Positions 1,369 to 22,653 of a stretch of DNA of 23,612 bases are shown here, one piece after another. Each line of letters begins with the position of its first letter. Positions within the stretch are counted from its first letter, which is position 1. This DNA comes from a virus. Taxonomy: Duplodnaviria; Heunggongvirae; Uroviricota; Caudoviricetes. The stretch is from IMG/VR virus record IMGVR_UViG_2728369591_000007. The stretch is one strand, 5' to 3'. Made by a program: the position numbers and the translations under genes. The notes below the pieces were generated by a model, which made no database searches, was not told where the DNA came from, and was given only the letters and a program-made list of their open reading frames with translations.

Positions 1369-1444
1369 GCCGATATAGCTCAGTTGGTAGAGCAGCGCAT
1401 TCGTAATGCGAAGGTCGTAGGTTCGACTCCTATTATCGGCACCA
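1369..1444 (+). tRNA. thrW: tRNA-Thr, anticodon CGT, CCA encoded
   Basis: 76 nt GCCGATATAGCTCAGTTGGTAGAGCAGCGCATTCGTAATGCGAAGGTCGTAGGTTCGACTCCTATTATCGGCACCA; perfect 7-bp acceptor stem GCCGATA/TATCGGC; anticodon loop cattCGTaatg; T-arm GGTTCGACTCC; an integrase gene follows directly. Confidence 0.93.
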
Positions 1445-1609: not shown

Positions 1610-2824
1610 GTGAAACTCAATGCCCGTCAAATAGACACAGCCAAGCCAAAAGAGAAGGCTTACAAGCTGGCCGATGGTGGCGGTTTGTATCTCTTGGTAA
1701 AACCTAATGGAGGTAAATACTGGCGACTTAAATATCGTGTAGCTGGTAAAGAGAAGCTATTGGCACTAGGTGTGTATCCTGAGGTTACTTTAGCCGATGC
1801 TCGGGCAAAACGTGAAGATGCGAAAAGAGGTATCGCTGGTGGTATCGATCCGATGGAAGCGAAACGAGAGGAAAAGATTGCCCGGGAAACGCAGTTAAAC
1901 AACACCTTCAAAGATATTGCCCTTGAGTGGCACAGCAGCAAATTAAAAAAATGGTCTGCTGGTTATGCTTCAGACATCCTCGAAGCCTTCAACAAAGATG
2001 TGTTCCCTTACATTGGCAAAAAACCAATCGCCGAAATCAAACCACTTGAACTTCTGAATGTGCTGCGGCGCATCGAGGGGCGCGGTGCGACAGAAAAAGC
2101 CAAAAAAGTGAGGCAGCGGTGCGGGGAAGTTTTCCGCTATGCAATAGTCACTGGTCGCGCAGAGTATAACCCTGCACCAGACCTTACTAGCGCGATGCAA
2201 GGCCATGAATCTAATCATTACCCTTTCCTTACGACCAAAGAATTACCTGATTTTTTCAAGGCATTGTCCAGTTACTCAGGAAGCGCATTGGTTGTTATGG
2301 CGGCTCGTCTACTGATTATCACCGGCTTGCGAACTGGCGAACTACGTGGCGCATTATGGGATGAAATTGATTTCAACAAGGCTATATGGGAGATACCCGC
2401 TTCACGTATGAAAATGCGGCGGCCTCATATTGTGCCATTGTCTGAGCAGGCTCTTTCGCTTATTGGGAAGATTAGAGAAATAACAGGCAATTACCCTCTT
2501 ATGTTTCCCGGGCGCAATGATCCAAGGAAAACAATGAGTGAGGCCAGCATAAACCAAGTGTTTAAGCGCATTGGCTACGCTGGACGTGTAACTGGTCATG
2601 GGTTCCGACACACTATGAGCACGATTTTGCATGAGCAGGGCTATAACACCGCGTGGATAGAAACGCAGCTCGCTCACGTTGATAAGAACTCAATTCGTGG
2701 CACATACAACCATGCGCAATATCTGGATGGACGGCGGGAGATGCTTCAATGGTATGCCGACTATATGGATTCTCTCGAGCATGGCGGAAATGTGGTGCAT
2801 ATGGTGTTTGAAAAACACGCATGA
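1610..2824 (+). CDS. P4-type tyrosine integrase (site-specific recombinase), 404 aa, GTG start
   Basis: Adjacent to tRNA; N-terminal arm-binding-like region (LYLLVKPNGGKYWRLKYR...); C-terminal catalytic motifs HGFRHT and LAHVDKNSIRGTYNH with the tyrosine; RBS GGAGG 9 nt upstream of GTG. Confidence 0.9.
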   Translation: MKLNARQIDTAKPKEKAYKLADGGGLYLLVKPNGGKYWRLKYRVAGKEKLLALGVYPEVTLADARAKREDAKRGIAGGIDPMEAKREEKIARETQLNNTFKDIALEWHSSKLKKWSAGYASDILEAFNKDVFPYIGKKPIAEIKPLELLNVLRRIEGRGATEKAKKVRQRCGEVFRYAIVTGRAEYNPAPDLTSAMQGHESNHYPFLTTKELPDFFKALSSYSGSALVVMAARLLIITGLRTGELRGALWDEIDFNKAIWEIPASRMKMRRPHIVPLSEQALSLIGKIREITGNYPLMFPGRNDPRKTMSEASINQVFKRIGYAGRVTGHGFRHTMSTILHEQGYNTAWIETQLAHVDKNSIRGTYNHAQYLDGRREMLQWYADYMDSLEHGGNVVHMVFEKHA

Positions 2825-3251: not shown

Positions 3252-3455
3252 ATGGCTAATTACAATTCATTAATTCGTCTCTCTGAAGTTCAAAGGCGAA
3301 CTGGTTATAGCAAAGCATGGATTTATCGTCTTATTAGTCAGGGGAGGTTCCCTAAACAGGTAAAAATTGGAAGTCGGGCAATTGCTTTTGTTGAGTCTGA
3401 AATAGATGAATGGATTGAGAAGTGTATATTAGAATCTAGAGACGAGGTGGCCTGA
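3252..3455 (+). CDS. alpA: AlpA-family DNA-binding transcriptional regulator (prophage excisionase-like), 67 aa
   Basis: Translation MANYNSLIRLSEVQRRTGYSKAWIYRLISQGRFPKQVKIGSRAIAFVESEIDEWIEK is a typical AlpA-like HTH; positioned right after the integrase. Confidence 0.8.
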   Translation: MANYNSLIRLSEVQRRTGYSKAWIYRLISQGRFPKQVKIGSRAIAFVESEIDEWIEKCILESRDEVA

Positions 3456-4904: not shown

Positions 4905-5338
4905 TACCCGTCCAGAAGAAGACATTTTCACTGGCTGGCATGTCGCCAAAATCCAGAAATATGACGGCAAAGTCAGGCATTAATACAGCAGATACAAGCA
5001 AAGTTTATCATTTGCTGGTGGTCGGAACGGATGCCTTAACCATACCAGAAATCTCGGGCGATGATATTAGCATTGAGAAGGTCAGCGGCTGCGCCAGAAA
5101 ATTTCTGGTCGTAGATGATGTCTTCCGCTCGTGTAGTGACTCCACAAAAACATTCGTCCACGCGCGTGACGTTAACGAAATGAGCGCGATGTACTGTGCT
5201 TCTGGTTCTTCCAATAGTGAGTTTTCGGAGTCCATAAAAAAGAGCTTGCCGTTATGCGGCAACACGGTTTATGGTTATAAGGCACCTCATAAAACGGGTG
5301 CCGGGTTTCGCAGCCCGGAAATGTACGAGGCGACACAT

Positions 5339-5360
5339 GACGCGCCGAGCGTCTTTTTTT
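5339..5360 (+). terminator. Candidate intrinsic terminator (short GC hairpin plus T7 run)
   Basis: GACGC-GCCGA-GCGTC followed by TTTTTTT. Confidence 0.5.
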
Positions 5361-5377
5361 GTGCCGTTAGCCAGACT

Positions 5378-5406
5378 CACACTTTTTTCAGTGATGTGGT
5401 TATAAT
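5378..5406 (+). promoter_or_regulatory. Candidate sigma70 promoter (perfect -10 TATAAT at 5401-5406, weak -35)
   Basis: TATAAT directly downstream of the terminator and upstream of a structured leader and the RBS-led ORF at 5563; the -35 match is poor, so the call is tentative. Confidence 0.3.
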
Positions 5407-5562
5407 CCGCGTCGCTTGCAAAATTATGGTGGGCTGGACAGGGCAGCCGAAAGGCTGGCCGGTTTCCTTGTACGCCGGTACTGCGAACTCTGTTCAGTCC
5501 ACCACCAGCGAGTTTCGCAGCTCCGGTGGTGGGAAGAATTCCCAGTACAAGGAGGCTGCCAC

Positions 5563-5757: not shown

Positions 5758-5968
5758 AACCTACGATGTGCATATGGATCCCCTCGAACGCACAAGCCAG
5801 ATCATCACACTGACAGAAGTGATTAACGACATTCTGGTGAGCAACTCTCCCTCACGAGACGAAAGACTGAAGGCGTTACTCGCGATATTGGATCTCGCCG
5901 TTCGTGACGTTCATTTCCTGCTGGAAGGTGGCGAAATGCCAGGAAAAACGGGGGCAACCAATGAATAA
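5750..5968 (+). CDS. hypothetical small protein, 72 aa
   Basis: ATG at 5750 preceded by GGAGG at spacing 7; translation MIKTYDVHMDPLERTSQIITLTEVINDILVSNSPSRDERLKALLAILDLAVRDVHFLLEGGEMPGKTGATNE; 8-bp overlap with both the previous and the next gene. Confidence 0.6.
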   Translation: MIKTYDVHMDPLERTSQIITLTEVINDILVSNSPSRDERLKALLAILDLAVRDVHFLLEGGEMPGKTGATNE

Positions 5969-7580: not shown

Positions 7581-7944
7581 AAATGCAGAAATGGCGCTTA
7601 GCTCCGCAATCGGAGAGCAGGTGGCAAAGATTGCTGGTGCTGTGTGGATTCATAACCTTCATTCTACTGGTGAAGAGAAAATGGCAATTCAGACGCCAGA
7701 GGGACGCACCATTACTACATCTCTGAAGCCGTCAGATGTTTGTGATCTGATTTGCGCATTCATGTACCCAGCAATGAGGACTGCCCACGGCGATAAGTGG
7801 AAACTTGCGACAACCGCTGAATTTGATATGTGGCTAAACAATGATGGCATGCTGACTGATTACGGAATAACCAAGTGGCAGATGCTGGTTAGCCATATCG
7901 CAAACGCTATAGACCACGTGGGGTACGGTGATGCGAAACATTGA
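7573..7944 (+). CDS. hypothetical protein, 123 aa
   Basis: 8-bp overlap with the upstream gene; its own stop overlaps the primase start. Confidence 0.6.
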   Translation: MRENAEMALSSAIGEQVAKIAGAVWIHNLHSTGEEKMAIQTPEGRTITTSLKPSDVCDLICAFMYPAMRTAHGDKWKLATTAEFDMWLNNDGMLTDYGITKWQMLVSHIANAIDHVGYGDAKH

Positions 7945-10687
7945 TCTTATCCGTCAGGTTATCAGTGCGTCTGAAAACAACTGGCCTCATGTGCTGGGCT
8001 GCCTGAACATAAATGTCCCTGACTCTCCGCGCCGTCATGCTCCCTGCCCTGCATGTGGGGGCAAAGATCGATTCCGGTTCGATGACAACGGGCGCGGTAG
8101 CTTCATCTGTAATCAGTGCGGCGCTGGTGATGGGCTGGATTTAATTAAACGCGTAAATAACTGCGACACAACAGAGGCGGCGCTTCTTGCCGCTGATGTT
8201 CTGGGTATTGATTACCGGACAACGGAAACACCAGAAGCCACCAGCCAGAAACGGGAACAACTGGAAACCGAGCGCCAGCGACGCGAACAGGAGCGCCTGA
8301 AAAGGGCAGAGAAGGACGAACAACAAAGACGGGATACGTTTTCCCGTCAGTTTGATGACATGCGCAGAAAGGCTGTAAACGGCAAATCTGATTATTTGGT
8401 TGCGAAAGGGGTAGGTGATTTTACATTCCCCGTGTTGCCCGATGGATCTCTGTTGCTGGCGCTGGTGGATAAATCCGGCGCAGTAACAGCAGCACAGACT
8501 ATTACCTCACATGGTGAAAAAAGACTCCTGACAGGTTCAGCAAAGCGGGGGGCATATCACGCCATAAACGCACCAGAAACAACACAGAGCATCTTAATCG
8601 CAGAAGGGCTGGCAACGGCATTATCTGCCCATTTAATTCGTCCAGAGGCGCTGACAGTGGCGGCGATTGATGCCGGGAACCTGTTATATGTCGCCCAGGT
8701 ACTGCGGGATAAATTTCCTTCAGCACAAATCATCATTGCTGCGGATAACGACCACAGCGAAGGAAGACAAAACACGGGGAGAATAGCAGCAGAAAAAGCA
8801 GCTTTATCTGTTTCTGGATGGGTGGCATTACCCCCGACAGATCACAAAGCAGACTGGAATGATTACCACCAAAAACACGGCATTAAATGCGCCACAGAAG
8901 CGTTCAATAAGTCAATGTACCAACCACAGGGTAATGGCGTGAAACAGGAGCCACAGACCATTGAGGGAAGCGATTTTAAGGTTATGGATACCGACCCACT
9001 GAAACCAAGAATAGAAAGCCGCGAGGATGGTATTTATTGGGTATCTCCGAGAGCTGACAGCCAGAGTGGAGAAATCATCAATAACGAAAGCTGGTTATGT
9101 TCTCCGTTAAGCGTTATCGGTACTGGCAGAGACGATAAAGACCAGTATCTCATTCTTCGCTGGCTGTCGTTTGGTTCTGAAACGCCGACAACCGCTGCCA
9201 TTCCACTGGCTGATATTGGTGAACGTGAAGGATGGCGCACACTTAAAGCTGGTGGGGTAAATGTCACGACCAAAAGCAGCCTCAGAGCAATGCTGGCAGA
9301 CTGGCTACAACGCAGTGGCTCTCGTGAATTGTGGCGTGTTGCTCATGCCACTGGCTGGCAATGCGGAGCGTACATCATGCCTGATGGGGAAATCATCGGA
9401 ACACCTGAAAATCCTGTGCTGTTCAGCGGGAGAAGCTCAGCCGCAGCCGGATATACCGTCTCAGGGAGCGCGCAAAGCTGGCGTGATAACGTGGCGCGTC
9501 TGGCCTTTGGTAACTATTCAATGATGACCGGGATCGGCGCAGCACTGGCAGCACCATTGATTGGGCTGGTGGGCGCTGACGGGTTCGGCATTCATTTCTA
9601 TGAGCAGTCGAGCGCAGGTAAGACCACCACGGCAAACGTGGCGAGCAGCTTATACGGCAACCCTGATTTACTGCGGCTGACGTGGTACGGAACCGCGCTG
9701 GGGCTGGCAAATGAGGCCGCCGCCCACAATGACGGACTAATGCCGCTTGATGAAGTTGGTCAGGGCGCTGATCCTGTCAGCGTTTCACAGTCTGCCTATG
9801 CGTTATTTAACGGTGTAGGGAAACTGCAAGGCGCTAAAGATGGTGGAAACCGGGATCTAAAACGTTGGCGTACAGTGGCAATCAGCACCGGAGAAATGGA
9901 TTTAGAAACATTTATCGCTACTTCCGGGCGAAAAACCAAAGCCGGGCAACTGGTGCGACTGCTGAATATTCCGTTGACTAAAGCAGTACGCTTTCACGAT
10001 TACCAGAACGGAAAACAGCACGCAGACGCACTGAAAGACGCTTACCAGCATCACCACGGCGCGTCCGGGCGTGAGTGGATTAAATGGCTGGCAGACCACC
10101 AGCAACAGGCTATTAAAACCGTTCGTGATTGCGAAAGCAGATGGAGAAGCCTGATCCCATCCGATTATGGTGAGCAGGTTCACCGTGTAGCCGCGCGATT
10201 TGCCATTCTGGAGGCCGCATTGTTGTTAGGCGAGGTTGTAACAGGCTGGGATGCTCAGACATGCCGTGATGCGATACAGCACAGCTATAACGCATGGTTG
10301 CGCGAGTTCGGCACAGGTAACAAAGAGCATCAGCAGATTATTGAACAAACGGAGGCATTTCTTAATGCCTATGGGCTTAGCCGTTTTGCACCATTTCCAT
10401 ACAGCCCGGCAGATTTGCCCATCAAAGATTTAGCCGGATACCGTCAGCGTGGAGAACATGACGAAAGCCCAATGATTTTCTACACATTCCCGGCCACATT
10501 TGAAAAGGAGATCGCATGTGGTTTCAACGCAAAACAGTTTGCTGAAGTGTTGAAAAAAGCCGGGATGCTAACCCCACCAAACAGCGGTCGTGGATACCAA
10601 AGAAAATCACCACGTATTCAGGGACGACAAATAAACGTTTATGTACTCAATTACCAGCCAGGAGATTATAACTCATCTGAAGAATGA
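7928..10687 (+). CDS. replicative primase-helicase, P4 alpha-like (zinc ribbon + TOPRIM + P-loop NTPase), 919 aa
   Basis: Zinc ribbon CPACGG-x17-CNQCG; TOPRIM-like IIAEGLATALSAH and IIIAADNDHSEG; Walker A-like SSAGKTT and Walker B-like LMPLDEVG; iteron cluster immediately downstream. Confidence 0.85.
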   Translation: MMRNIDLIRQVISASENNWPHVLGCLNINVPDSPRRHAPCPACGGKDRFRFDDNGRGSFICNQCGAGDGLDLIKRVNNCDTTEAALLAADVLGIDYRTTETPEATSQKREQLETERQRREQERLKRAEKDEQQRRDTFSRQFDDMRRKAVNGKSDYLVAKGVGDFTFPVLPDGSLLLALVDKSGAVTAAQTITSHGEKRLLTGSAKRGAYHAINAPETTQSILIAEGLATALSAHLIRPEALTVAAIDAGNLLYVAQVLRDKFPSAQIIIAADNDHSEGRQNTGRIAAEKAALSVSGWVALPPTDHKADWNDYHQKHGIKCATEAFNKSMYQPQGNGVKQEPQTIEGSDFKVMDTDPLKPRIESREDGIYWVSPRADSQSGEIINNESWLCSPLSVIGTGRDDKDQYLILRWLSFGSETPTTAAIPLADIGEREGWRTLKAGGVNVTTKSSLRAMLADWLQRSGSRELWRVAHATGWQCGAYIMPDGEIIGTPENPVLFSGRSSAAAGYTVSGSAQSWRDNVARLAFGNYSMMTGIGAALAAPLIGLVGADGFGIHFYEQSSAGKTTTANVASSLYGNPDLLRLTWYGTALGLANEAAAHNDGLMPLDEVGQGADPVSVSQSAYALFNGVGKLQGAKDGGNRDLKRWRTVAISTGEMDLETFIATSGRKTKAGQLVRLLNIPLTKAVRFHDYQNGKQHADALKDAYQHHHGASGREWIKWLADHQQQAIKTVRDCESRWRSLIPSDYGEQVHRVAARFAILEAALLLGEVVTGWDAQTCRDAIQHSYNAWLREFGTGNKEHQQIIEQTEAFLNAYGLSRFAPFPYSPADLPIKDLAGYRQRGEHDESPMIFYTFPATFEKEIACGFNAKQFAEVLKKAGMLTPPNSGRGYQRKSPRIQGRQINVYVLNYQPGDYNSSEE

Positions 10688-10712
10688 GATTCTTCATGTG
10701 CGTAGAAAAGGT

Positions 10713-10823
10713 GTTGGTTCAGTTGGTTCAGTTGGTTCAATTTGTAAAGAGTATTGTTTTATAAGGATTTTATTCTTTTTATTGAACCAACACTGAACCA
10801 ACAACACGGTATTTTGAACCAAC
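10713..10823. repeat. Iteron cluster 1 (candidate ori): 3 tandem GTTGGTTCA, AT-rich spacer, 3 inverted TGAACCAAC
   Basis: GTTGGTTCA at 10713-10721, 10722-10730, 10731-10739; TGAACCAAC at 10783-10791, 10794-10802, 10815-10823; begins 26 bp after the primase stop. Confidence 0.7.
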
Positions 10824-11143
10824 ACAATGTGACTGAATTGATGCGCACAACACCTGGCTGGCATCAGAGAGTGTTTTACGAGACTTTCGTAAAATCCTGT
10901 GTACAAGGGCGTGACGTTTTTGAAAGTGAGCACTACGAAATTTTCGTAGTTCAAAAAACAGCCTCTGAGAAGTTGTTATGCCTGTTCAGCAAACCATCCG
11001 CATAGCTGATCGCGAATCAAATTACCAATGGAGCCAGAAGCAAGGGCAGAACTGAAAAGCGCCTGCCGTGAAGAGTAATGCGACACCATAAATATAGTTT
11101 TTAGAGTCCATAAAAAACCTGTCAAAACCTGACACACAGAACG

Positions 11144-11177
11144 ATGCCACCAGCTACTGAGCGGTGGCATTTTTTTG
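11144..11177 (+). terminator. Candidate intrinsic terminator ending the early/replication operon
   Basis: ATGCCACC-(11-nt loop)-GGTGGCAT followed by TTTTTTT. Confidence 0.6.
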
Positions 11178-11271
11178 TGCTATTTGTTTCATATTTTGCA
11201 ATTACGATGATGAATATTGCGATTTGTGAAACTATAATAACTGTTGTTTTATACAGTTCTAAGGGGGCGTT

Positions 11272-11433
11272 ATGGCTATTTCAGTAAAGCCGGTATTGAT
11301 AAGTGAGAAGCAAATGGAAGCGATAAAGAAAATTCAGGAAGAGCAGCGTAAAAAATCAGGAATTGGAGTAGCGCCAACTCTGCATGAAATTGCACGAGGG
11401 TTAATAGATAAGGCGCTGGCAGGCTGTATGTGA
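11272..11433 (+). CDS. small protein, 53 aa, possible ribbon-helix-helix-like regulator (speculative)
   Basis: Below the track's length cutoff; ATG at 11272 with SD AAGGGGG upstream; TATAAT at 11233-11238; translation MAISVKPVLISEKQMEAIKKIQEEQRKKSGIGVAPTLHEIARGLIDKALAGCM. Confidence 0.45.
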   Translation: MAISVKPVLISEKQMEAIKKIQEEQRKKSGIGVAPTLHEIARGLIDKALAGCM

Positions 11434-11449
11434 AAATGGATGGCATCGC

Positions 11450-11911
11450 ATGGAACTAAAATTTATTGATAACCCTGTGCGATTACAGGCCTTTCTTAAC
11501 GAGCCAGGCAATACCGAAAATATTGTTGAGCCGGGGCACACGTACTACATCAAGCCTGATGCGGTATATCTCGGCATCTACGAAGGATTAGTGCTGGCTG
11601 GCGTTCATGAAGTGCGTAACTTCTGGCATAGCGTTGTTGAATGCCATGCGGTGTACGACCCCGGATTCCGTGGTGAATATGCACTGCAAGGGCATCGATT
11701 ATTCTGCAAATGGCTTCTCGAAAACTCACCATTCCTTAACAGCATTACCATGGTTCCTGACACCACCAAATACGGACGGGCAATTATCCGTTTGCTTGGC
11801 GCTACCCGTGTTGGTCACCTTGATGATGCTTATATCAGATGTGGTAAACCCGTCGGCGTAACGCTTTATCAGTTAACTCGGCAACAATATAAGGAATTCA
11901 GCGAATGTTAA
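11450..11911 (+). CDS. hypothetical protein, 153 aa (first gene of cargo cassette)
   Basis: Co-directional with, and overlapping, the next gene; protein-like sequence; no family recognised. Confidence 0.6.
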   Translation: MELKFIDNPVRLQAFLNEPGNTENIVEPGHTYYIKPDAVYLGIYEGLVLAGVHEVRNFWHSVVECHAVYDPGFRGEYALQGHRLFCKWLLENSPFLNSITMVPDTTKYGRAIIRLLGATRVGHLDDAYIRCGKPVGVTLYQLTRQQYKEFSEC

Positions 11912-12582
11912 TTACCCACATAGCTCATAAACATCTCAATCGTGCCGTATACGAAAAAGGCGGTGATGGTGGTGCCTCTAAAGCTCAGGCGAAGGCCCAG
12001 CAGCAGGCAATTGATTTGCAGCGCGAGCAGTGGAATACGGTGATGAATAATCTCAAGCCGTATGCAGAAGTCGGATTGCCTGCTTTACAACAACTACAAG
12101 GACTGATGACTCTGGAAGGGCAGAATAAAGCCGCGAATGATTTCTTTGGTTCTGGTTTATATAAAACACAGGCAGATCAGGCCCGTTATCAGAACCTTGT
12201 CTCAGCAGAAGCTACCGGGGGGCTTGGCTCAACAGCTACCAGTAACCAGTTATCTTCCATTGCGCCCATGCTTTATAACAATTGGCTTAGTGGGCAAATG
12301 CAAAATTATGGAAACCTGCTAAATGTCGGGATGAATGCGGCATCAGGGCAGGCAACAGCAGGGCAAAACTACGCCAATAATACCGGACAACTCTTGCAGG
12401 GGCTTGGCGCTATTCGTGCAGGTCAGGCGCAGCAGCCATCCAGTCTTGCGCGTGGTATTGGTGGGGCAGCATCAGGCGCTTTAGCGGGTGCGCAACTTGG
12501 TTCCGTTGTTCCTGGAATAGGTACTGCGGCAGGCGCTATTGGTGGTGGGCTTATTGGTCTTGTTGGGGGGCTTGGATTCTAA
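11905..12582 (+). CDS. Gln/Gly-rich protein with C-terminal glycine-zipper hydrophobic segment, 225 aa (ejection/pilot-protein-like)
   Basis: C-terminus GIGGAASGALAGAQLGSVVPGIGTAAGAIGGGLIGLVGGLGF; stop overlaps the next start (TAATG). Confidence 0.6.
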   Translation: MLITHIAHKHLNRAVYEKGGDGGASKAQAKAQQQAIDLQREQWNTVMNNLKPYAEVGLPALQQLQGLMTLEGQNKAANDFFGSGLYKTQADQARYQNLVSAEATGGLGSTATSNQLSSIAPMLYNNWLSGQMQNYGNLLNVGMNAASGQATAGQNYANNTGQLLQGLGAIRAGQAQQPSSLARGIGGAASGALAGAQLGSVVPGIGTAAGAIGGGLIGLVGGLGF

Positions 12583-13901
12583 TGGCGACATGGCAACTTG
12601 GCGGGCTGCCTAGCATGGCACCGCAAAATGATAATGCTCCTCGTTCTTCCGTTCCTCAGCCTGTGCAGTATCAGCAGCAGCCAAACGTAGGTTTAATGGC
12701 GCTACAGGGGCTAAGAGGCGTTGCTGAGATTAATCAGCAGGCGCAAATTTCCCAGCAGCTAAAAGAATATCAGGCACAGTTGGGTAGTGCGGTAGCTAAT
12801 AATGATCGTGTTGGCGTGCAGAAGTTAATGGCCCAGTATCCCCAGTTTATGGCTGATTCTCAAAAACAGATGGGATTCATTGATGCTGAGCAAAATCGGC
12901 AGACCGCTGACGCTGCCATGAATCTGCGTCTTGCGTCACAAACTGGAGATCCACTGACCATGCAGAAGGCCATTCAGCAGGCAAATCCAGTATTACAGCG
13001 ATTTGGTCTTCCTGCTGAAGAGGTTTATCAGTCTTGGCAGAATGACCCACAGGAATTCAACAGAATCACTGACCTCATCCACCTCCATGCTGATCCAAAT
13101 AGTTACTTTAGTGTTCAAGAGAAGCAGCAAGGGCAGAGTATTGCACAGCAGAACGCAGATACATCTGCATATAATGCTCAGGTTAATGCGGAACAGGGTA
13201 ATCGGCGTCTCGATATGGAGCAGTTCAAAGTCCTATCCGATAACCAGCTACGCACGAGAGAAATGGTTCTGAAAGCACGACTTGGACGTGCTCAAAATGA
13301 CATCGAGAGAGACAAGCTCAATGCTGAACTGAGCAAGGTACAGCAGGCGAAAGTGGAGAAGATGAACGATAAAATTAATACTGTTGCAGGTAACATCGAC
13401 TCCTTGAACTCTGCGCTTGAAGTGGGTCATGAACTGGCGGGAATTGTAGGGAAACATCCTTCGGCCGTTACCCGTTCGCAGAACTATAACCCCCTGACGC
13501 TGGGGTTTGGATTCCTTCCTGATGTAGCAGAAGACACACGAAGCCTACGCGCCAAAGCTGATGAATACAACCTAAAGGTTATTCTGCCTAGCCTCAAAGG
13601 GACTTTTGGCTCTAACCCAACCGAAGGGGAAAGGGCTGCCCTTATGCAATCTCAAAATGGCATTAAGTCAGCAACCAGCAATGAGGCATTTTTGCGAGAG
13701 TTGAATAAAGCGCAGGACGTAATTATTCGAATGCAGAAACGACAGATTGCCGGGCTCGGTATTCCTGTAACCAAATCTAAGGACGAAGAAACTGATACTA
13801 AAATGCTGTTGCAGGATCCTTCTCTGGTTAAGGATTATGTGACCGCACATGGCTATCTGCCGGAAAGTTACTATCAGGCAAAACTTAAGGGATGGCAATG
13901 A
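12582..13901 (+). CDS. Gln-rich predicted coiled-coil protein, 439 aa (internal-virion/ejection-protein-like)
   Basis: Long Q/A/N-rich helical-looking sequence; translationally coupled to both flanking genes. Confidence 0.6.
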   Translation: MATWQLGGLPSMAPQNDNAPRSSVPQPVQYQQQPNVGLMALQGLRGVAEINQQAQISQQLKEYQAQLGSAVANNDRVGVQKLMAQYPQFMADSQKQMGFIDAEQNRQTADAAMNLRLASQTGDPLTMQKAIQQANPVLQRFGLPAEEVYQSWQNDPQEFNRITDLIHLHADPNSYFSVQEKQQGQSIAQQNADTSAYNAQVNAEQGNRRLDMEQFKVLSDNQLRTREMVLKARLGRAQNDIERDKLNAELSKVQQAKVEKMNDKINTVAGNIDSLNSALEVGHELAGIVGKHPSAVTRSQNYNPLTLGFGFLPDVAEDTRSLRAKADEYNLKVILPSLKGTFGSNPTEGERAALMQSQNGIKSATSNEAFLRELNKAQDVIIRMQKRQIAGLGIPVTKSKDEETDTKMLLQDPSLVKDYVTAHGYLPESYYQAKLKGWQ

Positions 13902-16618
13902 TGGCACAACTGACAGAAAAACAGAAAGCCTATTCCCGTCATCTCGATGAAAAATATGGTTTCCCATCAGGGACGATGGAAACATTAGTTGGCAATGAAT
14001 CTAGTGGTAACGGAAGTGCCGAGTCACCGAAAGGAGCTAGAGGATTTGCTCAACTGATGCCCTCAGTAATGAGTGATGCTGGTTATCGTGGAACAGATCC
14101 GCGCTCACTGCCATTTGAAAAGCAAATGGATATCGCAGCAAACCATCTCAATAAAGGAATGAAGCGATTTGGTGATATAGGTATGGCATTGGCTGGGTAT
14201 AATTCTGGCTATGCTCGTATTAATGCCGTAAGAAACGGTAAATCTACACTGCCAGATGAAACGGCTAATTACGTAAGTAAATTTGCAGATGCCGGAATAA
14301 TCCCTGATGACAGTGAAATCTTGCAGTTTGCACAAACCAGTCAACATCGCAATCTTCAGCAGCCTGACTACTCAGAGCTTGATAAAGAAATCTCTCAGGT
14401 GGGAGATATTTCTGCATGGGAAGCAAAACGTCAGCAATTTAAGAACATAGAAGCAGGACTACCAACAGCCAGTTCATGGGAGCAGAAAAGAGCTCATTTT
14501 CTCGCCGATGAAAATGCCGGGGAACCGCAGCAGCAAGTAGCCAAGTCTAACCTTAATCCTGAGATGGAATATCTTTCGCCAGGACTGAAAGCTGCGCCAG
14601 AGCAGATGGCCAGAGGGATTGCTAATATACCGTTTGATGTAATGGACGCAGGCGTGGGGGTAGTCAATGCGGCGCAATCAGCCGGAGCATGGGCAGCTCA
14701 GAAGCTTGGTGTGGGTGATGGTACATACACGCCCATATCACCTGTCTTTCGCCCAGTAGACCAACCTACAGATCCATACGCGCAGGCTGGTGAGCAGCTA
14801 GCACCTTACCTTATTACAGGATTAGGTGCAGGAAAGGCAGCTACCGCAGCTTCTTCAGTTGCCAACGCTCCACGTGCTGAACGTGCGGCCACAAAGGTGG
14901 CTAGTATGTTGGCAGAAAACCTGCCAGGTACATTGGTGAACGCCCAAAAGAACGGGCAGATCAGCCCAGAAGACCTAGCAAAAGAGACAGGTATTGGCCT
15001 AGCAGGATCGCTAGGAGCACGCGCTTTAATAAAGAGCGGACAGACAGCCAGTGACGTAATGCGAGATGTATTGCGGAGTAATACAAATCAATCAAGCTAT
15101 GTGTTAGGGGCAGCAAATACTCTGGAAACCGCCAATGATGTATCGAAAGCAGCGCGTTCTGCCGTAGGCCGAGAGCATATCGCATCGCAGGCATCAAACG
15201 TCAGAGATGATGTCGCTAAGGCGGCGAAAATCACTGGTATTAATATCAACACCCTGACGCCTGGAATGCGCTCAGGTAGTCGTGGAATTGCCCAAGCAGA
15301 AGGTGTTCTGGCATCAACTCCTGGGAATGTTCAGGATGCTCACCTTACGGCCTTCAATGAAATATCCTCAAAGTTGAATAAGCAGTTGTCTGATTTCGGT
15401 GCTGAGTCTGGAAGCGCATCAGAAAAAAGCGCAGCAATTAAAGAGCGCATCATCGCGAGCCTCAGTGATATGAAAACAGCAGAGAATATGGCATGGGCAG
15501 AACTGCGAAGCACGATGCCACGCGAAAGGATGAAAATGAGTAATGGGATGGCTGTCGTCCAAGCAGAAAAAGCAGCCAATGTTCCACTCAGCCCGGAGAT
15601 GAAACAGTTTCAGGCTGCCAATAACCAAGGTGGCGGCATAACCTTCGACGGGATGAAGGCATGGCGTGCTAAGTTTGCTGATGCTGAACAAGCAAACACC
15701 CGGGCAGGTAAGGCCAATGCCGCCCGGGTTGCCGGAGAAATGCGCAGAGCTATCACTGATGACATGCGCATCATGGCTGAAAAAGGAAACTTCCTCACAG
15801 AATGGCAGAAAGCTAACGATCTCTCTAAAAGTTACATTATCGCCAAACAAAATGCCGAATCTGTTTTTGGTCGAGATCTCGCATCAGACGCTATGGTAAG
15901 AAAAGGTGCCGATACGCTTAAGGCATCCGCAAACACTGGAACGGGAGCTTTTCACCGTCTTATCTCCGCGCTGCCGGAAGCAGAACGCCAACCAGCAATA
16001 GCATCTATTCTTCAGCATGCTGTGGCGCAGGGAGAGAAGGGAGGAATCGGTGAAGAGTCTGGTATCCAGTATTTTGCCAAGCTCATGACCCAGCAGAATG
16101 TAAACGCCATCAGTCGTCATGCGCCAGATCTCGGTAGAATGATGAAAGAGTTCGGTGTACTCGCTAAAGCCAGCACCAGACCGCAGCGATACGTAGAGCG
16201 CACGGGAAGAACAACTGAGGCTCTCAAAACGCTCGATTCAGGCCTTCCAAAGATCGTCGGCGTGATTATGAACGGAGTTCAACAGTCAGGTGCGATCGCT
16301 GGAGGCTTTGGCGGTGGTGTAATTGGTTCGATTAGTGGTTTGGTTGCTGGTGGCGCGCTGAGAAATACTGTGGCTAAGATTGGGGCGACAAGAAGTGGTC
16401 GATATGCGATAGAGAAAGCCGTTCAGGAAGCTACAAAAGCAGTGCGCGCAGGGGCATCACCAGCAGCGATCGCCGCAGCAGAGAAACGATTTTCGGCCAA
16501 TAAAATTGCCATGAAAGCAATTCGTGATGCCGTTGGGGCTGAAGAATTCGTGAAACTGACAAGGGCCGGGATTGTAGCTACCCTCAGTGGCATGAAAGAT
16601 GTTAGCGAATGGGAATAG
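13892..16618 (+). CDS. large protein with N-terminal lytic transglycosylase (SLT) domain and C-terminal glycine-rich hydrophobic segment, 908 aa
   Basis: SLT family signature near the N-terminus: catalytic E-S in GNESSGN, GFAQLMPS, and AGYNSGYAR; C-terminal GAIAGGFGGGVIGSISGLVAGGAL; architecture recalls podovirus internal core proteins of the T7 gp16 class. Confidence 0.7.
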   Translation: MAMMAQLTEKQKAYSRHLDEKYGFPSGTMETLVGNESSGNGSAESPKGARGFAQLMPSVMSDAGYRGTDPRSLPFEKQMDIAANHLNKGMKRFGDIGMALAGYNSGYARINAVRNGKSTLPDETANYVSKFADAGIIPDDSEILQFAQTSQHRNLQQPDYSELDKEISQVGDISAWEAKRQQFKNIEAGLPTASSWEQKRAHFLADENAGEPQQQVAKSNLNPEMEYLSPGLKAAPEQMARGIANIPFDVMDAGVGVVNAAQSAGAWAAQKLGVGDGTYTPISPVFRPVDQPTDPYAQAGEQLAPYLITGLGAGKAATAASSVANAPRAERAATKVASMLAENLPGTLVNAQKNGQISPEDLAKETGIGLAGSLGARALIKSGQTASDVMRDVLRSNTNQSSYVLGAANTLETANDVSKAARSAVGREHIASQASNVRDDVAKAAKITGININTLTPGMRSGSRGIAQAEGVLASTPGNVQDAHLTAFNEISSKLNKQLSDFGAESGSASEKSAAIKERIIASLSDMKTAENMAWAELRSTMPRERMKMSNGMAVVQAEKAANVPLSPEMKQFQAANNQGGGITFDGMKAWRAKFADAEQANTRAGKANAARVAGEMRRAITDDMRIMAEKGNFLTEWQKANDLSKSYIIAKQNAESVFGRDLASDAMVRKGADTLKASANTGTGAFHRLISALPEAERQPAIASILQHAVAQGEKGGIGEESGIQYFAKLMTQQNVNAISRHAPDLGRMMKEFGVLAKASTRPQRYVERTGRTTEALKTLDSGLPKIVGVIMNGVQQSGAIAGGFGGGVIGSISGLVAGGALRNTVAKIGATRSGRYAIEKAVQEATKAVRAGASPAAIAAAEKRFSANKIAMKAIRDAVGAEEFVKLTRAGIVATLSGMKDVSEWE

Positions 16619-16768: not shown

Positions 16769-17467
16769 ATGATTAAAAATCTTCTTTTAATATTATCCCT
16801 GTCATTATTGGCTGGATGCGTACAAAAACCGTTAGTAACGGTCAATGCTTTATCTTCCGGGCAATCTGTCGGTAAGAAGTTCTTGATCATCCCCGCAAGC
16901 CAAGAACTTTGGAACACCAAACAGATTGAATACACTCAAATAGCTACGGTAGTAGCCGCCAGTTTATCAAGCCAAGGATATACACAAGTTAAAGATGAAA
17001 AATTGGCTGACCAGGTAATTCTCTTGAACTTTTTGAGAAGCGGGGCCATTTCAAATACTCGTAATGTAACCATCCCAATATACGGGCAAACTGGTGTGAG
17101 CTCAGCAACAACGTACGGAAACTCGAACACCACGTTCAATAGTTATGGTGGTGGCTACGGTACAGCTAATACCACTGGAACGGCAACAACAGTTTATACG
17201 CCTACTTATGGAATTACTGGCGCGTATAACACAACTGTGACGGACACGTTCTACGGCGCAGGGGTGATACTCCAGTCGTTTGATGCCAAGGCCTATCTCA
17301 ATAATAGGCAGATTAATATGTTATGGAAAGTTGGTAGCTCAGTCGTCTCGCAACAGTCTGATGGAATTGCTGATTACAAGGGGTTGGCGAGAATAGCCGC
17401 TAGCTATGCCGGGAAAAATACAGAAGGTGATATAACTTTTAATGTTGACCCTAAAGCACCAAATTAA
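16769..17467 (+). CDS. lipoprotein, 232 aa, Thr/Gly/Tyr-rich low-complexity mature region
   Basis: Signal peptide with lipobox MIKNLLLILSLSLLAGC; RBS AGGTGA at spacing 8; intrinsic terminator immediately downstream. Confidence 0.7.
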   Translation: MIKNLLLILSLSLLAGCVQKPLVTVNALSSGQSVGKKFLIIPASQELWNTKQIEYTQIATVVAASLSSQGYTQVKDEKLADQVILLNFLRSGAISNTRNVTIPIYGQTGVSSATTYGNSNTTFNSYGGGYGTANTTGTATTVYTPTYGITGAYNTTVTDTFYGAGVILQSFDAKAYLNNRQINMLWKVGSSVVSQQSDGIADYKGLARIAASYAGKNTEGDITFNVDPKAPN

Positions 17468-18326: not shown

Positions 18327-18764
18327 TCATATGTAACTTATTATTTTAGATAAAGATTTCCAGTTAAAGAAAAAAGTTATCATTGATATAATCAAATATG
18401 CCCCTGCGAGTAGCAGGGCATAATAATCCAGAGGCAGATTGCTGACAACAGGGGCAAACATCGAGATCATTGCTAATAGGCAGGCTGTGATCAGCGTAGT
18501 TCCTGTATCAAAAAGCCCCTCAATAATGCCTTTTAGTACTCCGTTACTTTTTAGAGCGCCTACAATTCCCTTTGAACTATCAAAGCTACTTAGCATGGTG
18601 ACTGATGCCAAAACAAAACCAAAGAGAACTCCAGAAATAGTTGAAAGAGCACCAGCAGCCGAAATGACAGCATTGTGATCTAGGTCGTGTAAAAAATGGG
18701 CACCAGCAATAGCCATAGCTAGAGCAAACAATGACTTGGCAGCAAACAATTTCCGAGAACTCAT
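18327..18764 (-). CDS. small integral membrane protein, 145 aa, about four predicted transmembrane helices (candidate effector)
   Basis: Translation MSSRKLFAAKSLFALAMAIAGAHFL...LLAGAYLIISMITFFFNWKSLSKIISYI is dominated by hydrophobic segments; RBS AGGA 8 nt upstream; 12 bp downstream of the 361-aa gene on the same strand; AT-rich by eye. Confidence 0.7.
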   Translation of the reverse strand: MSSRKLFAAKSLFALAMAIAGAHFLHDLDHNAVISAAGALSTISGVLFGFVLASVTMLSSFDSSKGIVGALKSNGVLKGIIEGLFDTGTTLITACLLAMISMFAPVVSNLPLDYYALLLAGAYLIISMITFFFNWKSLSKIISYI

Positions 18765-18776
18765 AATGTATTCCTG

Positions 18777-19862
18777 TTACGTTTGACTAACCAAATAGTA
18801 CTGGGTTAGATACCTAAGGTTGTCATTCTTTGCTTGTAGCATAGCATTTTTAACGTCAGTATCGGTCGGATACCCATCTGCTTGGATAGGCACCATCTTC
18901 TTTACCGTAAGAACTTCGTCTACAAGACTTTTCTTCTTTTTATCGCCCTGAGCAACAACATTTGCTTTCTCAAAAGTTAAACGACCATCACCACCAGGGA
19001 ACTTTTCTAGCATCTCCTTAAGGCTTTTTTTAACGTCATCCTCAAGCCATCCCTTTGCTTTTCTTTTTAATGGAGAATGTCCGCGTAACGAAATAGTCAG
19101 GTGGCTTGAACTGGTGCCTCTGATCATCTCAATCATCTGATTCGCGAACATTCCATCGAGTTGATACTGTGCGGCATTGAAGTTTCTTGGGATGGCCACA
19201 GAAATCTCGCAGCTTCTTAGATTGGATCCAGTTTCGAGTAGTTCTTTGATGCTTTCTTCTTTCCAAATGGCTTCAAAAGAAACAGGGACTCCGCGATCAC
19301 TGGAGTTGAAAAGAAGGAAGGCTAAGTCACTATGGCGTGGACCTAAATGATTTAAAGACAATACTAGAATGTCTGTCTGAGGATAATAAATAAAGTATGT
19401 ACGTTCTGAAAGAGTCTTTGCCCCGGCTAGAGGGATTTTCTCTTCCACCCACTCTTTATCTGTAATATATGCCAGTGTTGCGCTTTTTCTTCTTCGAGAC
19501 ATGAATCCGAAGTAGGAGCCATCCTCGGGTGAGATGTCTAGAAAATGAATTTTAAGTTCTCTTTCACCAAAGTCTGCATAGTGGGTCATCTTGAAGTCTT
19601 TAGAACACCGATCATAGAGATTTTTAAAGGCCTCTGCGGTTAACCCCTTGTTACTAGTGCGAATATTCTCAGAGCTTGTGTAAAAGCCCACCCTTACAGA
19701 TTTCAAACTTTGATCTTTTGGTGCCACAGTCATTTGAGCTCCATTGTACTCTGCGATAGTTTTTGCACACCTTGAAATCAAAATCTCCATGTCAGTCACG
19801 AGAAAATAACTATGGATGAAACCCATCAAAGGCATTGAATACAGGTGGCTTTTGAGAATCAT
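18777..19862 (-). CDS. hypothetical soluble protein, 361 aa (possibly about 316 aa from an internal start); candidate sensor partner of the membrane protein
   Basis: Long minus-strand ORF with protein-like composition; an alternative ATG at MTVAPK has a better SD (GGAG); no family recognised; AT-rich by eye. Confidence 0.7.
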   Translation of the reverse strand: MILKSHLYSMPLMGFIHSYFLVTDMEILISRCAKTIAEYNGAQMTVAPKDQSLKSVRVGFYTSSENIRTSNKGLTAEAFKNLYDRCSKDFKMTHYADFGERELKIHFLDISPEDGSYFGFMSRRRKSATLAYITDKEWVEEKIPLAGAKTLSERTYFIYYPQTDILVLSLNHLGPRHSDLAFLLFNSSDRGVPVSFEAIWKEESIKELLETGSNLRSCEISVAIPRNFNAAQYQLDGMFANQMIEMIRGTSSSHLTISLRGHSPLKRKAKGWLEDDVKKSLKEMLEKFPGGDGRLTFEKANVVAQGDKKKKSLVDEVLTVKKMVPIQADGYPTDTDVKNAMLQAKNDNLRYLTQYYLVSQT

Positions 19863-20349: not shown

Positions 20350-20631
20350 ATGATAAGGGACAGGAAAGCTGAAGAGCTGGAGTCAAAAGGGCTATACCGG
20401 AGAGCTGCCGCACGATGGATGGAAGTCATGCTGTTATGCAGCGAGGACGATGATCGGGAATGGATAAAGCGCCGCCGTGAAACGTGTCTGGAGAACGTGA
20501 AGCGCCCGCCCGTGAAGGTTGAGGAATTTGGCGACCTGCATAAAGCTGTTACCGAAACGCAACACCGCATGGGGATAGCGCAACCGAACGGTAACGCCTT
20601 CCGGTTAAATGGCGGCAAGAGGCAAAGGTAG
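20350..20631 (+). CDS. PerC-like small transcriptional regulator (tentative), 93 aa
   Basis: N-terminus MIRDRKAEELESKGLYRRAAARWMEVM resembles PerC-family proteins from prophage-like elements as I remember them; TATAAT at 20331-20336 and GAGG RBS upstream. Confidence 0.45.
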   Translation: MIRDRKAEELESKGLYRRAAARWMEVMLLCSEDDDREWIKRRRETCLENVKRPPVKVEEFGDLHKAVTETQHRMGIAQPNGNAFRLNGGKRQR

Positions 20632-21234: not shown

Positions 21235-21777
21235 ATGTACCAGCTAAAGATAACCATCCGAGACAGCAAACCACCTATATGGCGGCGTGTGCTGGTTCCA
21301 GAGCAAATCCCCTTTAGTAAACTTCATGCCGTGATCCAGTTAGCTTTTGGCTGGAATGACGAACACCTGTATATGTTCGAGAAAGGGCGTAAAGGTGATC
21401 CAGGTAGCGAGTATCGCGTATGGGGTGAGGATGAAAGCATGGGTAACGCGGCAATCACGCCACTATGGGCGGCGCTCCAGAATGAGGGTGACAAGCTGGT
21501 TTACACGTATGACTTTGGCGACTGGTGGGATTGCGTCATTGTGCTGGAGAAGCAAACACACGATACGAGTAATCAGCCCATTAGCTGCCTGCGTGGGAAA
21601 GGCACCACCCCGGCGGAAAACTCAGGCGGCTTGCATGGTTACAATGAATTGCTATTACAGGCCAGAGAGTCTGATAATCCTGAGCAGGCCGAGATCCACA
21701 ATTTCCTGATGCTGGATATTGAACGCCGGGTTTACGACCTGAGCCGCATCAACGACAGATTGCAGGCTATTAACTGA
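21235..21777 (+). CDS. pRiA4b ORF-3-like family protein, 180 aa
   Basis: Hallmark motifs YQLKITIRDSKPPIWRRVLVP...LHAVIQLAFGWNDEHLYMF and YTYDFGDWWDCVIVLE. Confidence 0.75.
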   Translation: MYQLKITIRDSKPPIWRRVLVPEQIPFSKLHAVIQLAFGWNDEHLYMFEKGRKGDPGSEYRVWGEDESMGNAAITPLWAALQNEGDKLVYTYDFGDWWDCVIVLEKQTHDTSNQPISCLRGKGTTPAENSGGLHGYNELLLQARESDNPEQAEIHNFLMLDIERRVYDLSRINDRLQAIN

Positions 21778-22270: not shown

Positions 22271-22653
22271 TATAAAAAATGAACAATAAAAAAGGCAACA
22301 AAAACAAAGCTTATCGCCTATGTGTATTGTTCCTATTATCCCATTTAAATCAATAAGTTAGATAAGTGTGTGCCTAGATTTTCTTGCAGTTTGTCATTTG
22401 GGTACACACAGGGGACACAAAGCACAAAAGTGTGTACATTTGGTTTTGGTGTCCTCGTGTTTACTTCTTACCGTTGATATAAATTCACTTTCTTGTTGAC
22501 AAAAATTGTAAGCATGTCGAATGGCAATGTAGACATCGCTATTAGTTGTTTGGTAAGGTATTTATTGAGTGTAAACATAAAAACTTTATCAATATATGCT
22601 CAGACTGATGAGGTCAGTATTGATACTGATGTTTTCAAATTTTAGGCCATAAA

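Follow-up and report, generated by a model that had tools for sequence, protein, structure and literature searches.

A complete P22-type ejection-protein module is a conserved hallmark of a widespread family of chromosomal islands

We analyzed a 23,612-nt stretch of viral DNA (Duplodnaviria; Heunggongvirae; Uroviricota; Caudoviricetes; IMG/VR record IMGVR_UViG_2728369591_000007), referred to below as the window, which holds a 20,903-bp island inserted at the tRNA-Thr gene thrW of Escherichia coli. Behind the primase gene of this island lie four genes that, by sequence comparison, form a complete 14-7-20-16 unit of phage P22, with true homologues of the four proteins in the same order. The module is a conserved core hallmark of a widespread island family and is neither loose cargo nor prophage debris. 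We identify the island as a variant of EcCIMP1, a satellite of E. coli MP1, because the two share the attachment core TCCTATTATC and the same backbone, and the gp20–gp16 DNA is 99.3% identical to that of E. coli MP1. We put at about 60% the probability that these genes are the ejection-protein module of a satellite with P22-like podovirus helpers and are loaded into helper particles under SOS control. Loading into helper capsids and use for DNA delivery seem likely; the adaptive purpose is offered as a hypothesis.

A first-pass annotation of the window had described four coupled open reading frames (ORFs) of 153, 225, 439, and 908 amino acids (aa) and likened the three larger products to podovirus ejection proteins. 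All four are present on the plus strand with overlapping ends (ATGTTAA, TAATG, and ATGATGGCA over TGA), as expected for translational coupling; in the NCBI annotation, the last gene begins at 13898 (906 aa) rather than at 13892. The proposed likeness to the P22 gp7/gp20/gp16 class proved to be homology, with the trio corresponding to gp7, gp20, and gp16, and the 153-aa product, which had been left without assignment, is the gp14 homologue. BLASTP against the P22 proteins returned 23% identity for gp14 (2e-7), 56% for gp7 (4e-53), 28% across the N-terminal 200 aa for gp20 (2e-14), and 46% over a 76-aa stretch for gp16 (3e-16). The genes keep the tightly packed 14-7-20-16 order of P22. Compared with true phage contexts (L015, L016, Kapi1, and P22), the module has no tail needle gene before it and no tailspike gene after it, and its upstream neighbors are a primase gene, a probable origin, and a putative promoter.

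The individual proteins carry the features expected of these families. The last 40 residues of the gp7 homologue are 57% Gly plus Ala and contain five overlapping GxxxGxxxG motifs, in keeping with the glycine zipper described earlier, and the gp20 homologue is Gln-rich as proposed (11.8% Gln). The transglycosylase signature noted at the start of the 908-aa protein (E-S, GFAQLMPS, AGYNSGY) falls within a Pfam SLT match at aa 17–119 (nt 13940–14248; E 1.1e-12, 48 bits, cut-off 21.3), and the presence there of GNESSG, GFAQLMPS, and AGYNSGY, the motifs of SLT family 1, predicts an enzyme. Its Gly-rich hydrophobic segment is likewise real and corresponds to a Gly-zipper membrane segment at aa 800–839 (nt 16289–16408). 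Residues 182–864 match PHROG 770 (“DNA transfer protein”), and homologues 83% identical to the 908-aa protein carry PF26808 (Phage_P22_gp16). The part outside the SLT domain is 48–52% identical to gp16 of HK620, CUS-3, and epsilon34. The same SLT–gp16 fusion occurs in phages Dewey and Huey (46.5% identity, residues 21–903) and in a Serratia P22-like prophage.

The suggested resemblance to the T7 gp14–gp16 class holds as an analogy only, with no sequence relationship beyond the SLT domain. Like the T7 ejectosome, the module encodes a size-ordered, envelope-spanning trio whose largest member has an N-terminal lytic transglycosylase, and a review groups P22 gp7, gp20, and gp16 as “gp14-like, gp15-like, gp16-like” (PMC8954989). 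The sole T7-type profile similarity, to PHROG 342, is limited to residues 9–217 of the 908-aa protein, which is the SLT region. Solved-structure searches with the four protein sequences and with profiles of the gp16 and gp20 homologues matched no PDB chain meaningfully, and membership in the T7 class was rejected as unsupported.

The AlphaFold2 model of the gp14 homologue, for which 30 homologues were used, has high confidence (pLDDT 89.4, pTM 0.82) and adopts a GNAT fold. Foldseek returned 338 PDB matches at E ≤ 0.001, the best being the acetyltransferases SpeG and YncA (TM 0.73–0.80, E ~1e-8), with TM 0.76–0.80 for the SpeG type. The expected acetyl-CoA motif, Q/R-x-x-G-x-G/A, is non-canonical and reads FRGEYA. 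Based on the model, gp14 may be an enzyme that modifies ejection proteins instead of a scaffold, and the predicted fold provides a lead on its role; its family, DUF2824, is commonly labelled “head morphogenesis.” Many E. coli O157:H7 chromosomes have an annotated DUF2824 gene that is a 287-bp fragment of gene 14, 98.3% identical to that of the island, which suggests that islands and resident P22-like prophages, or what remains of them, have exchanged DNA recently. NCBIfam and PADLOC returned nothing useful for the ejection module, the adjacent lipoprotein, or the accessory genes.

The EcCIMP1 system supplies the experimental background for the window. EcCIMP1 is a phage-inducible chromosomal island (PICI) of E. 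coli MP1 (Pick, Stadel, and Raivio, ISME J 2025; PMC11773190; GenBank OR778291) that circularizes and excises only in the presence of the P22-like podovirus Kapi1 and needs its own integrase and alpA, with AlpA acting as the helper-induced master activator required for excision and transfer (PMC11773190). Kapi1 transduces EcCIMP1 rarely, at ~4.8e3 particles per ml, and a chromosomal control marker is not transferred (PMC11773190). Kapi1 titers after induction are the same with or without EcCIMP1, infection of non-lysogens is unaffected, and EcCIMP1 adds to the superinfection immunity of Kapi1 lysogens, with no known defense system found in it (PMC11773190). Helper-dependent mobilization of this island type has thus been demonstrated by others, and the earlier suspicion that the window holds a satellite is borne out. 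Such dependence was measured on the near-identical EcCIMP1, and the island in the window is known by its sequence. The two share the thrW site between proA and yagU, the att core, and the gene order from the integrase to a 232-aa lipoprotein; they differ in length (19,963 bp for EcCIMP1 versus 20,903 bp here), in the accessory stretch, which in the window carries minus-strand genes for 361-aa and 145-aa proteins, and in the DNA beyond attR. The EcCIMP1 authors left the module genes as hypothetical, suggested a packaging role, and recognized no packaging module (PMC11773190); the words “ejection” and “transglycosylase” are absent from their paper. The main text of the MP1 transcriptome paper does not name the module genes.

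The module does not duplicate the genes of the helper. Its proteins share 84% (gp14), 58% (gp7), 26% (gp20), and 24% (gp16) identity with those of Kapi1; gp20 and gp16 are mostly unlike the helper pair, and the Kapi1 gp16 match does not extend to the SLT domain. When 27 Kapi1 proteins were searched against the window by tblastn, only five matched, namely gp14, gp7, gp20, gp16, and the integrase, and the remaining 22 structural, lysis, or regulatory proteins gave no match. Together with Pfam scans, in which all other island ORFs lacked capsid, portal, and terminase families, this upholds the earlier observation that the window has no portal, capsid, or terminase gene.

The first-pass annotation had called the four genes a cargo cassette; optional cargo they are not, as the module was present in 25 of 25 island loci examined (from E. 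coli, Leclercia, Salmonella, Pectobacterium, metagenomes, and IMG/VR). Together the loci represent five or more named genera, several integrases or sites of insertion, and two types of primase. E. coli islands occupy at least two insertion sites; L002 and L003 share the backbone, have another integrase, and are inserted between yicC and dinD. A different primase type, DUF5906, is found in L005, L006, and L017, and a minimal two-gene form with gp20 and gp16 only in L004, L005, and L019. Outside E. coli, the module was found in Leclercia (L008), Salmonella (L011, L012), Pectobacterium (L013), metagenome contigs (L014, L018, L019), and nine IMG/VR contigs. None of the island loci examined has a head or tail gene alongside the module; the explicit head-gene test covers the window and the nine IMG/VR loci, and Kapi1-type head genes occurred in none of those nine contigs. 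Some copies have decayed through insertion sequence (IS) elements or truncation (L002, L003, L006, L018).

Among 5,426 complete E. coli genomes, the primase–gp14–gp7 junction is found in 235, and evenly spaced sampling of the match list gives a rough estimate of about twice 235 when other island forms are counted. The family is common: 4% or more of complete E. coli genomes have it, and it occurs in Salmonella, Citrobacter, Leclercia, and Pectobacterium as well. On the co-occurrence of the cassette with the primase and iterons, for which the first-pass annotation had proposed a survey of homologous islands, the gp20/gp16 allele of the window is present in 72 E. coli genomes, with 67 of them joined to the DUF927 primase, and the same iterons recur in L013 (Pectobacterium) and L019 (metagenome). 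A gp16 search of genome contigs returned one locus only (Leclercia), and the spread of the family was established by looking up contigs and through the protein database. The contexts of six gp20 relatives at least 49% identical were read, and all six lie in islands; true P22-like prophages appeared at gp20 identities of 47% (Serratia) and 38% (Providencia). In a set of 50,697 phage records, gp20 reached at most 28.5% identity and gp16 at most 52%. By these comparisons, the gp20 allele type has so far been found only in islands.

Comparison of the E. coli and Leclercia operons shows purifying selection, with ratios of nonsynonymous to synonymous substitution rates (dN/dS) of 0.03–0.08 over five operon genes (0.03 for a 53-aa gene that opens the operon, 0.07 for gp14, 0.07 for gp7, 0.06 for gp20, and 0.08 for gp16; dS 1.05–2.5). 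The operon proteins are 82–89% identical between these hosts and the primase 68%. A recombination breakpoint at ~12742, about 54 codons into gp20, parts the gp14–gp7 block from the rest. Across 11 sequences (pairs non-independent), the C-terminal part of gp20 varies in identity together with gp16 (Spearman 0.72), compared with 0.09 for the N-terminal part, and gp20 and gp16 occur as co-varying allele pairs. In L005, gp20 is 75% identical to that of Kapi1 and gp16 41%, and the gp20 N-terminus of L004 is 55% identical to that of P22. This mosaic allele pattern matches the one described for P22-like phages (Leavitt et al., mBio 2024; PMC10883804).

Genetic work on P22 gives these patterns a functional meaning. 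Ejection proteins just 22–26% identical to those of P22 assemble into P22 virions and function; gp7 is singly exchangeable, gp16 and gp20 must share the phage of origin, and P22 particles in which one protein of the gp16/gp20 pair is foreign assemble normally and are non-infectious (PMC10883804). The minimal gp20-plus-gp16 islands, and the way in which the gp20 C-terminus varies together with gp16, are what P22 genetics predicts for a functional, exchangeable delivery unit. The same study found that SieA, an inner-membrane protein, blocks DNA entry by P22-like phages and by transducing particles, that SieA escape mutations map to the C-terminal regions of gp16 and gp20, and that HK620 ejection proteins confer partial SieA resistance (PMC10883804).

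The operon has its own putative control region, which lies behind an intrinsic terminator that separates it from the replication module (Table 1). The promoter region is kept in eight islands from E. coli, Leclercia, Salmonella, Pectobacterium, and metagenomes, consistent with a conserved promoter. Next to its −10 hexamer is a predicted LexA box that scores 20.0 bits and is the top site in the window, using a matrix assembled for this analysis from 20 E. coli SOS boxes, which themselves score 13.2 to 27.2 bits. An equivalent site ranks first or second in each of 10 island loci scored, and the best Kapi1 site reaches 8.6 bits. The CTGT and CAG of the box are kept in seven of eight aligned islands, and the spacer varies. 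We predict from this that LexA controls the operon directly as part of the SOS response. The box is followed by a ribosome-binding site and the 53-aa gene, and this leader and gene precede the module in almost all island variants, being missing only from the decayed L003 and L018. An AlphaFold2 single-sequence model of the 53-aa protein shows an extended N-terminus and two helices; it found no Foldseek match, and a ribbon-helix-helix regulator, considered for this protein, remains a guess. Control from a helper late promoter was rejected since the conserved leader (10868–11420) belongs to islands with another primase and not to lambdoid late regions, and inspection by eye upstream of the promoter revealed no TGT-N12-ACA site of the P2 Ogr/P4 Delta type. 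A second, weak LexA-like box (13.8 bits) lies just after the integrase stop at 2828–2847; the box at this place is strong in L013 (648–667, Pectobacterium, 21.8 bits) and in L019 (2507–2526, metagenome, 23.1 bits), and SOS control may also extend over the int–alpA region.

The Staphylococcus aureus pathogenicity islands (SaPIs) offer a precedent for such an arrangement. SaPI operon I is LexA-controlled and exploits helper virion assembly, and like the operon described here, for which the control is predicted, it lies downstream of the replication module. It differs in encoding the small terminase subunit and capsid-size factors instead of ejection proteins, and in its Gram-positive host.

We propose that DNA damage induces the resident helper and that LexA cleavage would at the same time de-repress the island operon (the 53-aa gene, gp14, gp7, gp20, and SLT–gp16). 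In parallel, the helper would set off AlpA-dependent excision and replication of the island. The island ejection proteins could then be built into helper procapsids, with island gp14 84% identical to that of the helper, and particles with island DNA would leave with the satellite's own gp7, gp20–gp16 conduit, and cell-wall-cutting SLT domain. At the next cell, these proteins would be ejected first and form the DNA channel. The most likely benefit would be altered entry specificity, by which a satellite with a divergent cognate gp20/gp16 pair could enter lysogens of potential helpers otherwise closed to it. An entry benefit is suggested because SieA sensitivity maps to gp20 and gp16 and SieA blocks transducing particles too, and because a satellite that travels in P22-like particles profits from reaching cells with potential helper prophages, which are the likeliest to express exclusion.

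Several points weigh against this proposal. Two very different SieA types exclude phages with very different ejection proteins, and only HK620-type proteins partly escape (PMC10883804); because divergent ejection proteins are often still excluded, allele divergence by itself is no guarantee of SieA escape. Helper and island gp20/gp16 would mix in one cell, and co-assembly could harm, since non-cognate gp16/gp20 combinations are non-infectious in P22 (PMC10883804). The LexA box is a prediction from the DNA sequence, scored with a purpose-built matrix of 20 sites. Neither a packaging signal nor a terminase-directing gene was found that would account for packaging of the island: the island and the Kapi1 genome have 48 overlapping 13-mers in common versus ~25 expected, which is chance level for a helper pac site, a single 14-mer inside the Kapi1 terS gene is not significant, and blastn between the two detected gene 14/7 homology and a short integrase match only. 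The rarity of transfer suggests that the EcCIMP1 system may be poorly matched to Kapi1. The SOS control, the capsid loading, and above all the purpose are inferred, as are the presence of these proteins in particles and a need for them in transfer.

Beyond this proposal, a bolder version can be put forward tentatively, with odds below even. In this “entry key and lock” of enterobacterial satellites, a swappable, cognate key consisting of the gp20 C-terminal part and gp16, accompanied or not by gp14 and gp7, would re-arm helper capsids to let satellite DNA pass SieA-type injection blocks, and the adjacent envelope protein would be the lock that excludes competing P22-like phages, with both switched on directly by SOS. 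The lock would be encoded at the sieA position of P22. Each of the 12 loci checked, whether in an island or in a phage, has a gene for a small envelope protein immediately downstream of gp16. In the window, it is the 232-aa lipoprotein, which accompanies this gp16 type in L001, L010, L011, L012, L014, and L022 and has DUF4136-like relatives that, where the source is named, are almost all from Enterobacterales. At this place L004 encodes a protein with a signal peptide, L002, L005, L017, and L019 encode membrane proteins, and island L018 encodes a BamE-like lipoprotein that is 68% identical to the protein at the same place in a Serratia P22-like prophage. The shared slot suggests that the islands took over the whole segment of ejection genes plus exclusion slot. 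As speculation, the 232-aa lipoprotein is a candidate exclusion factor and a candidate source of the superinfection immunity provided by EcCIMP1.

Among the other explanations, it is unlikely that the island ejection proteins serve interference, that is, that they co-assemble into helper virions and spoil them through non-cognate gp20/gp16, to the advantage of satellite or host. In P22, particles whose gp16 or gp20 is foreign do form and are non-infectious (PMC10883804), island gp20 and gp16 are only 24–26% identical to those of Kapi1, and many satellites interfere with their helpers (PMC11773190). Yet Kapi1 titers are equal with and without EcCIMP1 and non-lysogen infection is unaffected (PMC11773190), which weakens the earlier suggestion that the proteins are used against a helper, and a pure poison needs no complete cognate set maintained by purifying selection with gp14 and an SLT domain. 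We find it quite improbable that the module, or mainly the envelope protein after gp16, acts in the resident cell to block DNA entry by incoming P22-like phages. The added immunity of Kapi1 lysogens, with no known defense system in EcCIMP1 (PMC11773190) and an empty PADLOC scan, fits this idea, as does the envelope protein in the P22 sieA position of every island variant checked; however, the four ejection proteins lack signal peptides and belong to families of virion components, and a role for the lipoprotein leaves the selected gp14, gp7, gp20, and gp16 unexplained. Exclusion of this kind complements loading into helper particles.

The packaging function suggested by the EcCIMP1 authors, in which the proteins steer helper packaging to the island, appears very improbable to us. 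The genes do sit downstream of the primase, where other PICIs keep packaging genes (PMC11773190), and no other packaging determinant was found in the island, but P22 prophages with non-functional ejection-protein combinations yield similar numbers of virion-like particles (PMC10883804). The packaging-gene reading was rejected on the families themselves, which are ejection proteins with no similarity to TerS, Rpp, or capsid-size factors. Also counted against it, P22 7−, 16−, and 20− mutants make DNA-filled, non-infectious particles. There is hardly any chance that the module is left over, inert, from a P22-like prophage that formerly occupied thrW, also the attachment site of P22 itself, and was fused by deletion with a P4-like island. 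The module and its downstream envelope gene are laid out as in the right arm of P22-like phages, and some copies are decayed, as listed above. Against this, the same module and leader occur at different sites, with different integrases and primases, in several genera, and the module shows dN/dS values of 0.03–0.08, a dedicated, conserved putative promoter, and no accompanying head or tail gene in the island loci examined. A decayed prophage remnant beside tail genes, which the first-pass annotation had named as one outcome that would overturn it, is excluded by selection, spread, promoter, and the absence of tail genes; the phage origin of the module is real but ancient.

In relation to the P22 14-7-20-16 block, then, the island module has the same four families and order, overlapping genes, and a small envelope-protein gene in the sieA place. 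It is unlike that block in its identity (23–56%, partial for gp20 and gp16), in the SLT domain of its gp16, in being preceded by a primase gene, a probable origin, a terminator, a putative LexA-box promoter, and the 53-aa gene instead of tail genes, and in having no head, tail, or tailspike genes nearby.

Table 1. Positions of features in the window
Feature	Position	Strand	Evidence or remarks
P22 gp14 homologue (DUF2824), predicted GNAT fold, 153 aa	11450..11911	+	Pfam 1.5e-61, 207 bits (cut-off 25); PHROG 651
P22 gp7 ejection-protein homologue, 225 aa	11905..12582	+	Pfam P22_gp7 6.6e-73, 246 bits (cut-off 28)
P22 gp20 ejection-protein homologue (periplasmic conduit), 439 aa	12582..13901	+	Pfam Inj_translocase 3.8e-22, 79.5 bits (cut-off 29.7)
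SLT lytic transglycosylase fused to P22 gp16-type ejection protein, 908 aa	13892..16618	+	PHROG 770 1.9e-120
Predicted intrinsic terminator between replication module and ejection operon	11135..11180	+	stem-loop then U7; −26.2 kcal/mol, z −6.2; conserved in alignment
Putative promoter region: inverted repeat TTGCAAT-N13-ATTGCGA (11197–11223), −10 TATAAT (11233–11238)	11197..11238	+	no good −35 hexamer
Predicted LexA (SOS) box AACTGTTGTTTTATACAGTT	11239..11258	.	two bases after −10 hexamer; sole CTGT-N8-ACAG in window
53-aa first gene of operon, possible small DNA-binding regulator	11272..11433	+	85% identical to Leclercia copy, dN/dS 0.03
232-aa lipoprotein (lipobox LLAGC), slot used by P22 for sieA	16769..17467	+	DUF4136-like relatives
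attL core TCCTATTATC	1428..1437	+	within 3′ end of tRNA-Thr(CGU) thrW; core as published for EcCIMP1
Island tyrosine integrase, P4-type with arm-binding domain	1610..2824	+	Pfam Arm-DNA-bind_3, Phage_int_M, Phage_integrase; 49% identical to Kapi1 integrase
AlpA-family regulator	3252..3455	+	Pfam Phage_AlpA 7.4e-20
isrK (5282–5359) and C4 antisense RNA (5422–5509), P4/P1-type RNA immunity region	5282..5509	+	Rfam 69 and 81 bits, both above gathering score
Primase/replicase, Zn-ribbon, Toprim, and DUF927	7928..10687	+	Pfam; PHROG 1139, 9.7e-179
Probable replication origin: 3 × GTTGGTTCA, AT-rich spacer, 3 × TGAACCAAC inverted	10711..10825	.	directly after primase gene
attR core TCCTATTATC	22331..22340	+	repeat of attL decamer

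The boundaries and remaining content of the island fit the satellite assignment. The window opens in E. coli proA, followed by tRNA-Thr(CGU) thrW at 1369–1444. Genomes free of the island align to the window only over the tRNA and then again from ~22341; this pattern and the att repeats give the island its extent. A second repeat, GGGGGTACTTNTGGGGGTAT, lies near both ends. The gene order runs from a P4-type integrase, the AlpA regulator, a 143-aa protein, an AntA antirepressor, and a DUF4222 protein through the isrK/C4 antisense RNA region, six small ORFs, and the Zn-ribbon/Toprim/DUF927 primase to the ejection cassette, the lipoprotein, a variable stretch, PerC, and a pRiA4b ORF-3 protein. The integrase, AlpA, the primase/replicase with its adjacent origin, and flanking att sites, without a phage structural or lysis set, are those of Gram-negative PICIs; the iteron array after the primase gene probably serves as the replication origin. 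The packaging module of PICIs was not found, with no Pfam or PHROG matches to TerS, Rpp, or capsid-size/morphogenesis genes, nor were the Sid, Psu, and Delta families of P4-like satellites detected by Pfam in any scanned ORF.

The isrK and C4 matches overlap a 355-aa ORF (4901–5968) labelled “ash family protein” by NCBI. When translated, this ORF does not look like a protein, and the MP1 annotation has a pseudogene and an Icd-like gene there; the true features of this region are probably the P4/P1-type immunity RNAs. The variable stretch (17.5–20.3 kb) holds a low-GC (~41%) unit of two minus-strand genes (18327–19862) for the 361-aa protein and the 145-aa hydrophobic, apparently membrane, protein. 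This unit has no Pfam, NCBIfam, or PADLOC match, PADLOC found no defense system in the island as a whole, and sister islands carry Abi_2, ImmA/IrrE, or Panacea-domain genes at this position. The unit may be an undescribed defense or toxin system in a cargo hotspot. At the right end lie a PerC-family regulator (20350–20631) and the pRiA4b ORF-3 family protein (21235–21777); the EcCIMP1 copy of PerC is reported to silence LEE (locus of enterocyte effacement) virulence genes in Citrobacter rodentium. Beyond attR, the DNA (22341–23612) is unlike that of MP1 and contains a 198-aa ORF (22654–23250) and an IS1 end from ~23560, and MP1 has a 7-kb island with MarR and a vat pseudogene at this position. 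At 20.9 kb, or 20.0 kb for EcCIMP1, the islands are about half the length of the helper Kapi1 genome (39,436 bp); a P22-type headful would thus fit about two island copies, possibly by coincidence.

Known phage satellites alter capsid size or packaging specificity or, as recently found, build their own capsids. P4 (through Sid and Psu) and the capsid-forming PICIs supply some structural or assembly proteins and take the rest from the helper. The island resembles P4 and the capsid-forming PICIs in that the satellite would supply part of the virion, and a P4-type RNA immunity region and integrase are found here too; it is unlike them in supplying internal DNA-delivery proteins where they alter or build capsids, and it has no Sid, Psu, Delta, or capsid gene. 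That this type of element is a satellite of a P22-like phage is already known (PMC11773190). New here are the recognition of the post-primase genes as a complete ejection module, its standing as a selected hallmark of a widespread island family, the allele-pair structure, and the predicted SOS control. In the literature searched, no satellite is described as supplying proteins that carry DNA across the recipient envelope, and searches on satellites with ejection proteins and on PICIs with a “DNA transfer protein” found nothing relevant besides PMC11773190.

If the proteins are loaded into helper particles, the satellite would control a new step of the helper life cycle and could change which cells receive its DNA, including lysogens guarded by exclusion proteins that block injection. 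Were the key-and-lock version true, this would be the first satellite that sets the DNA-delivery step of the helper virion, not capsid size or packaging. The islands also represent natural sets of cognate gp20/gp16 pairs with which to study the P22 ejection conduit against SieA. Since the family carries virulence-gene regulators and variable defense-like cargo, the rules of its transfer matter for gene flow among gut bacteria.

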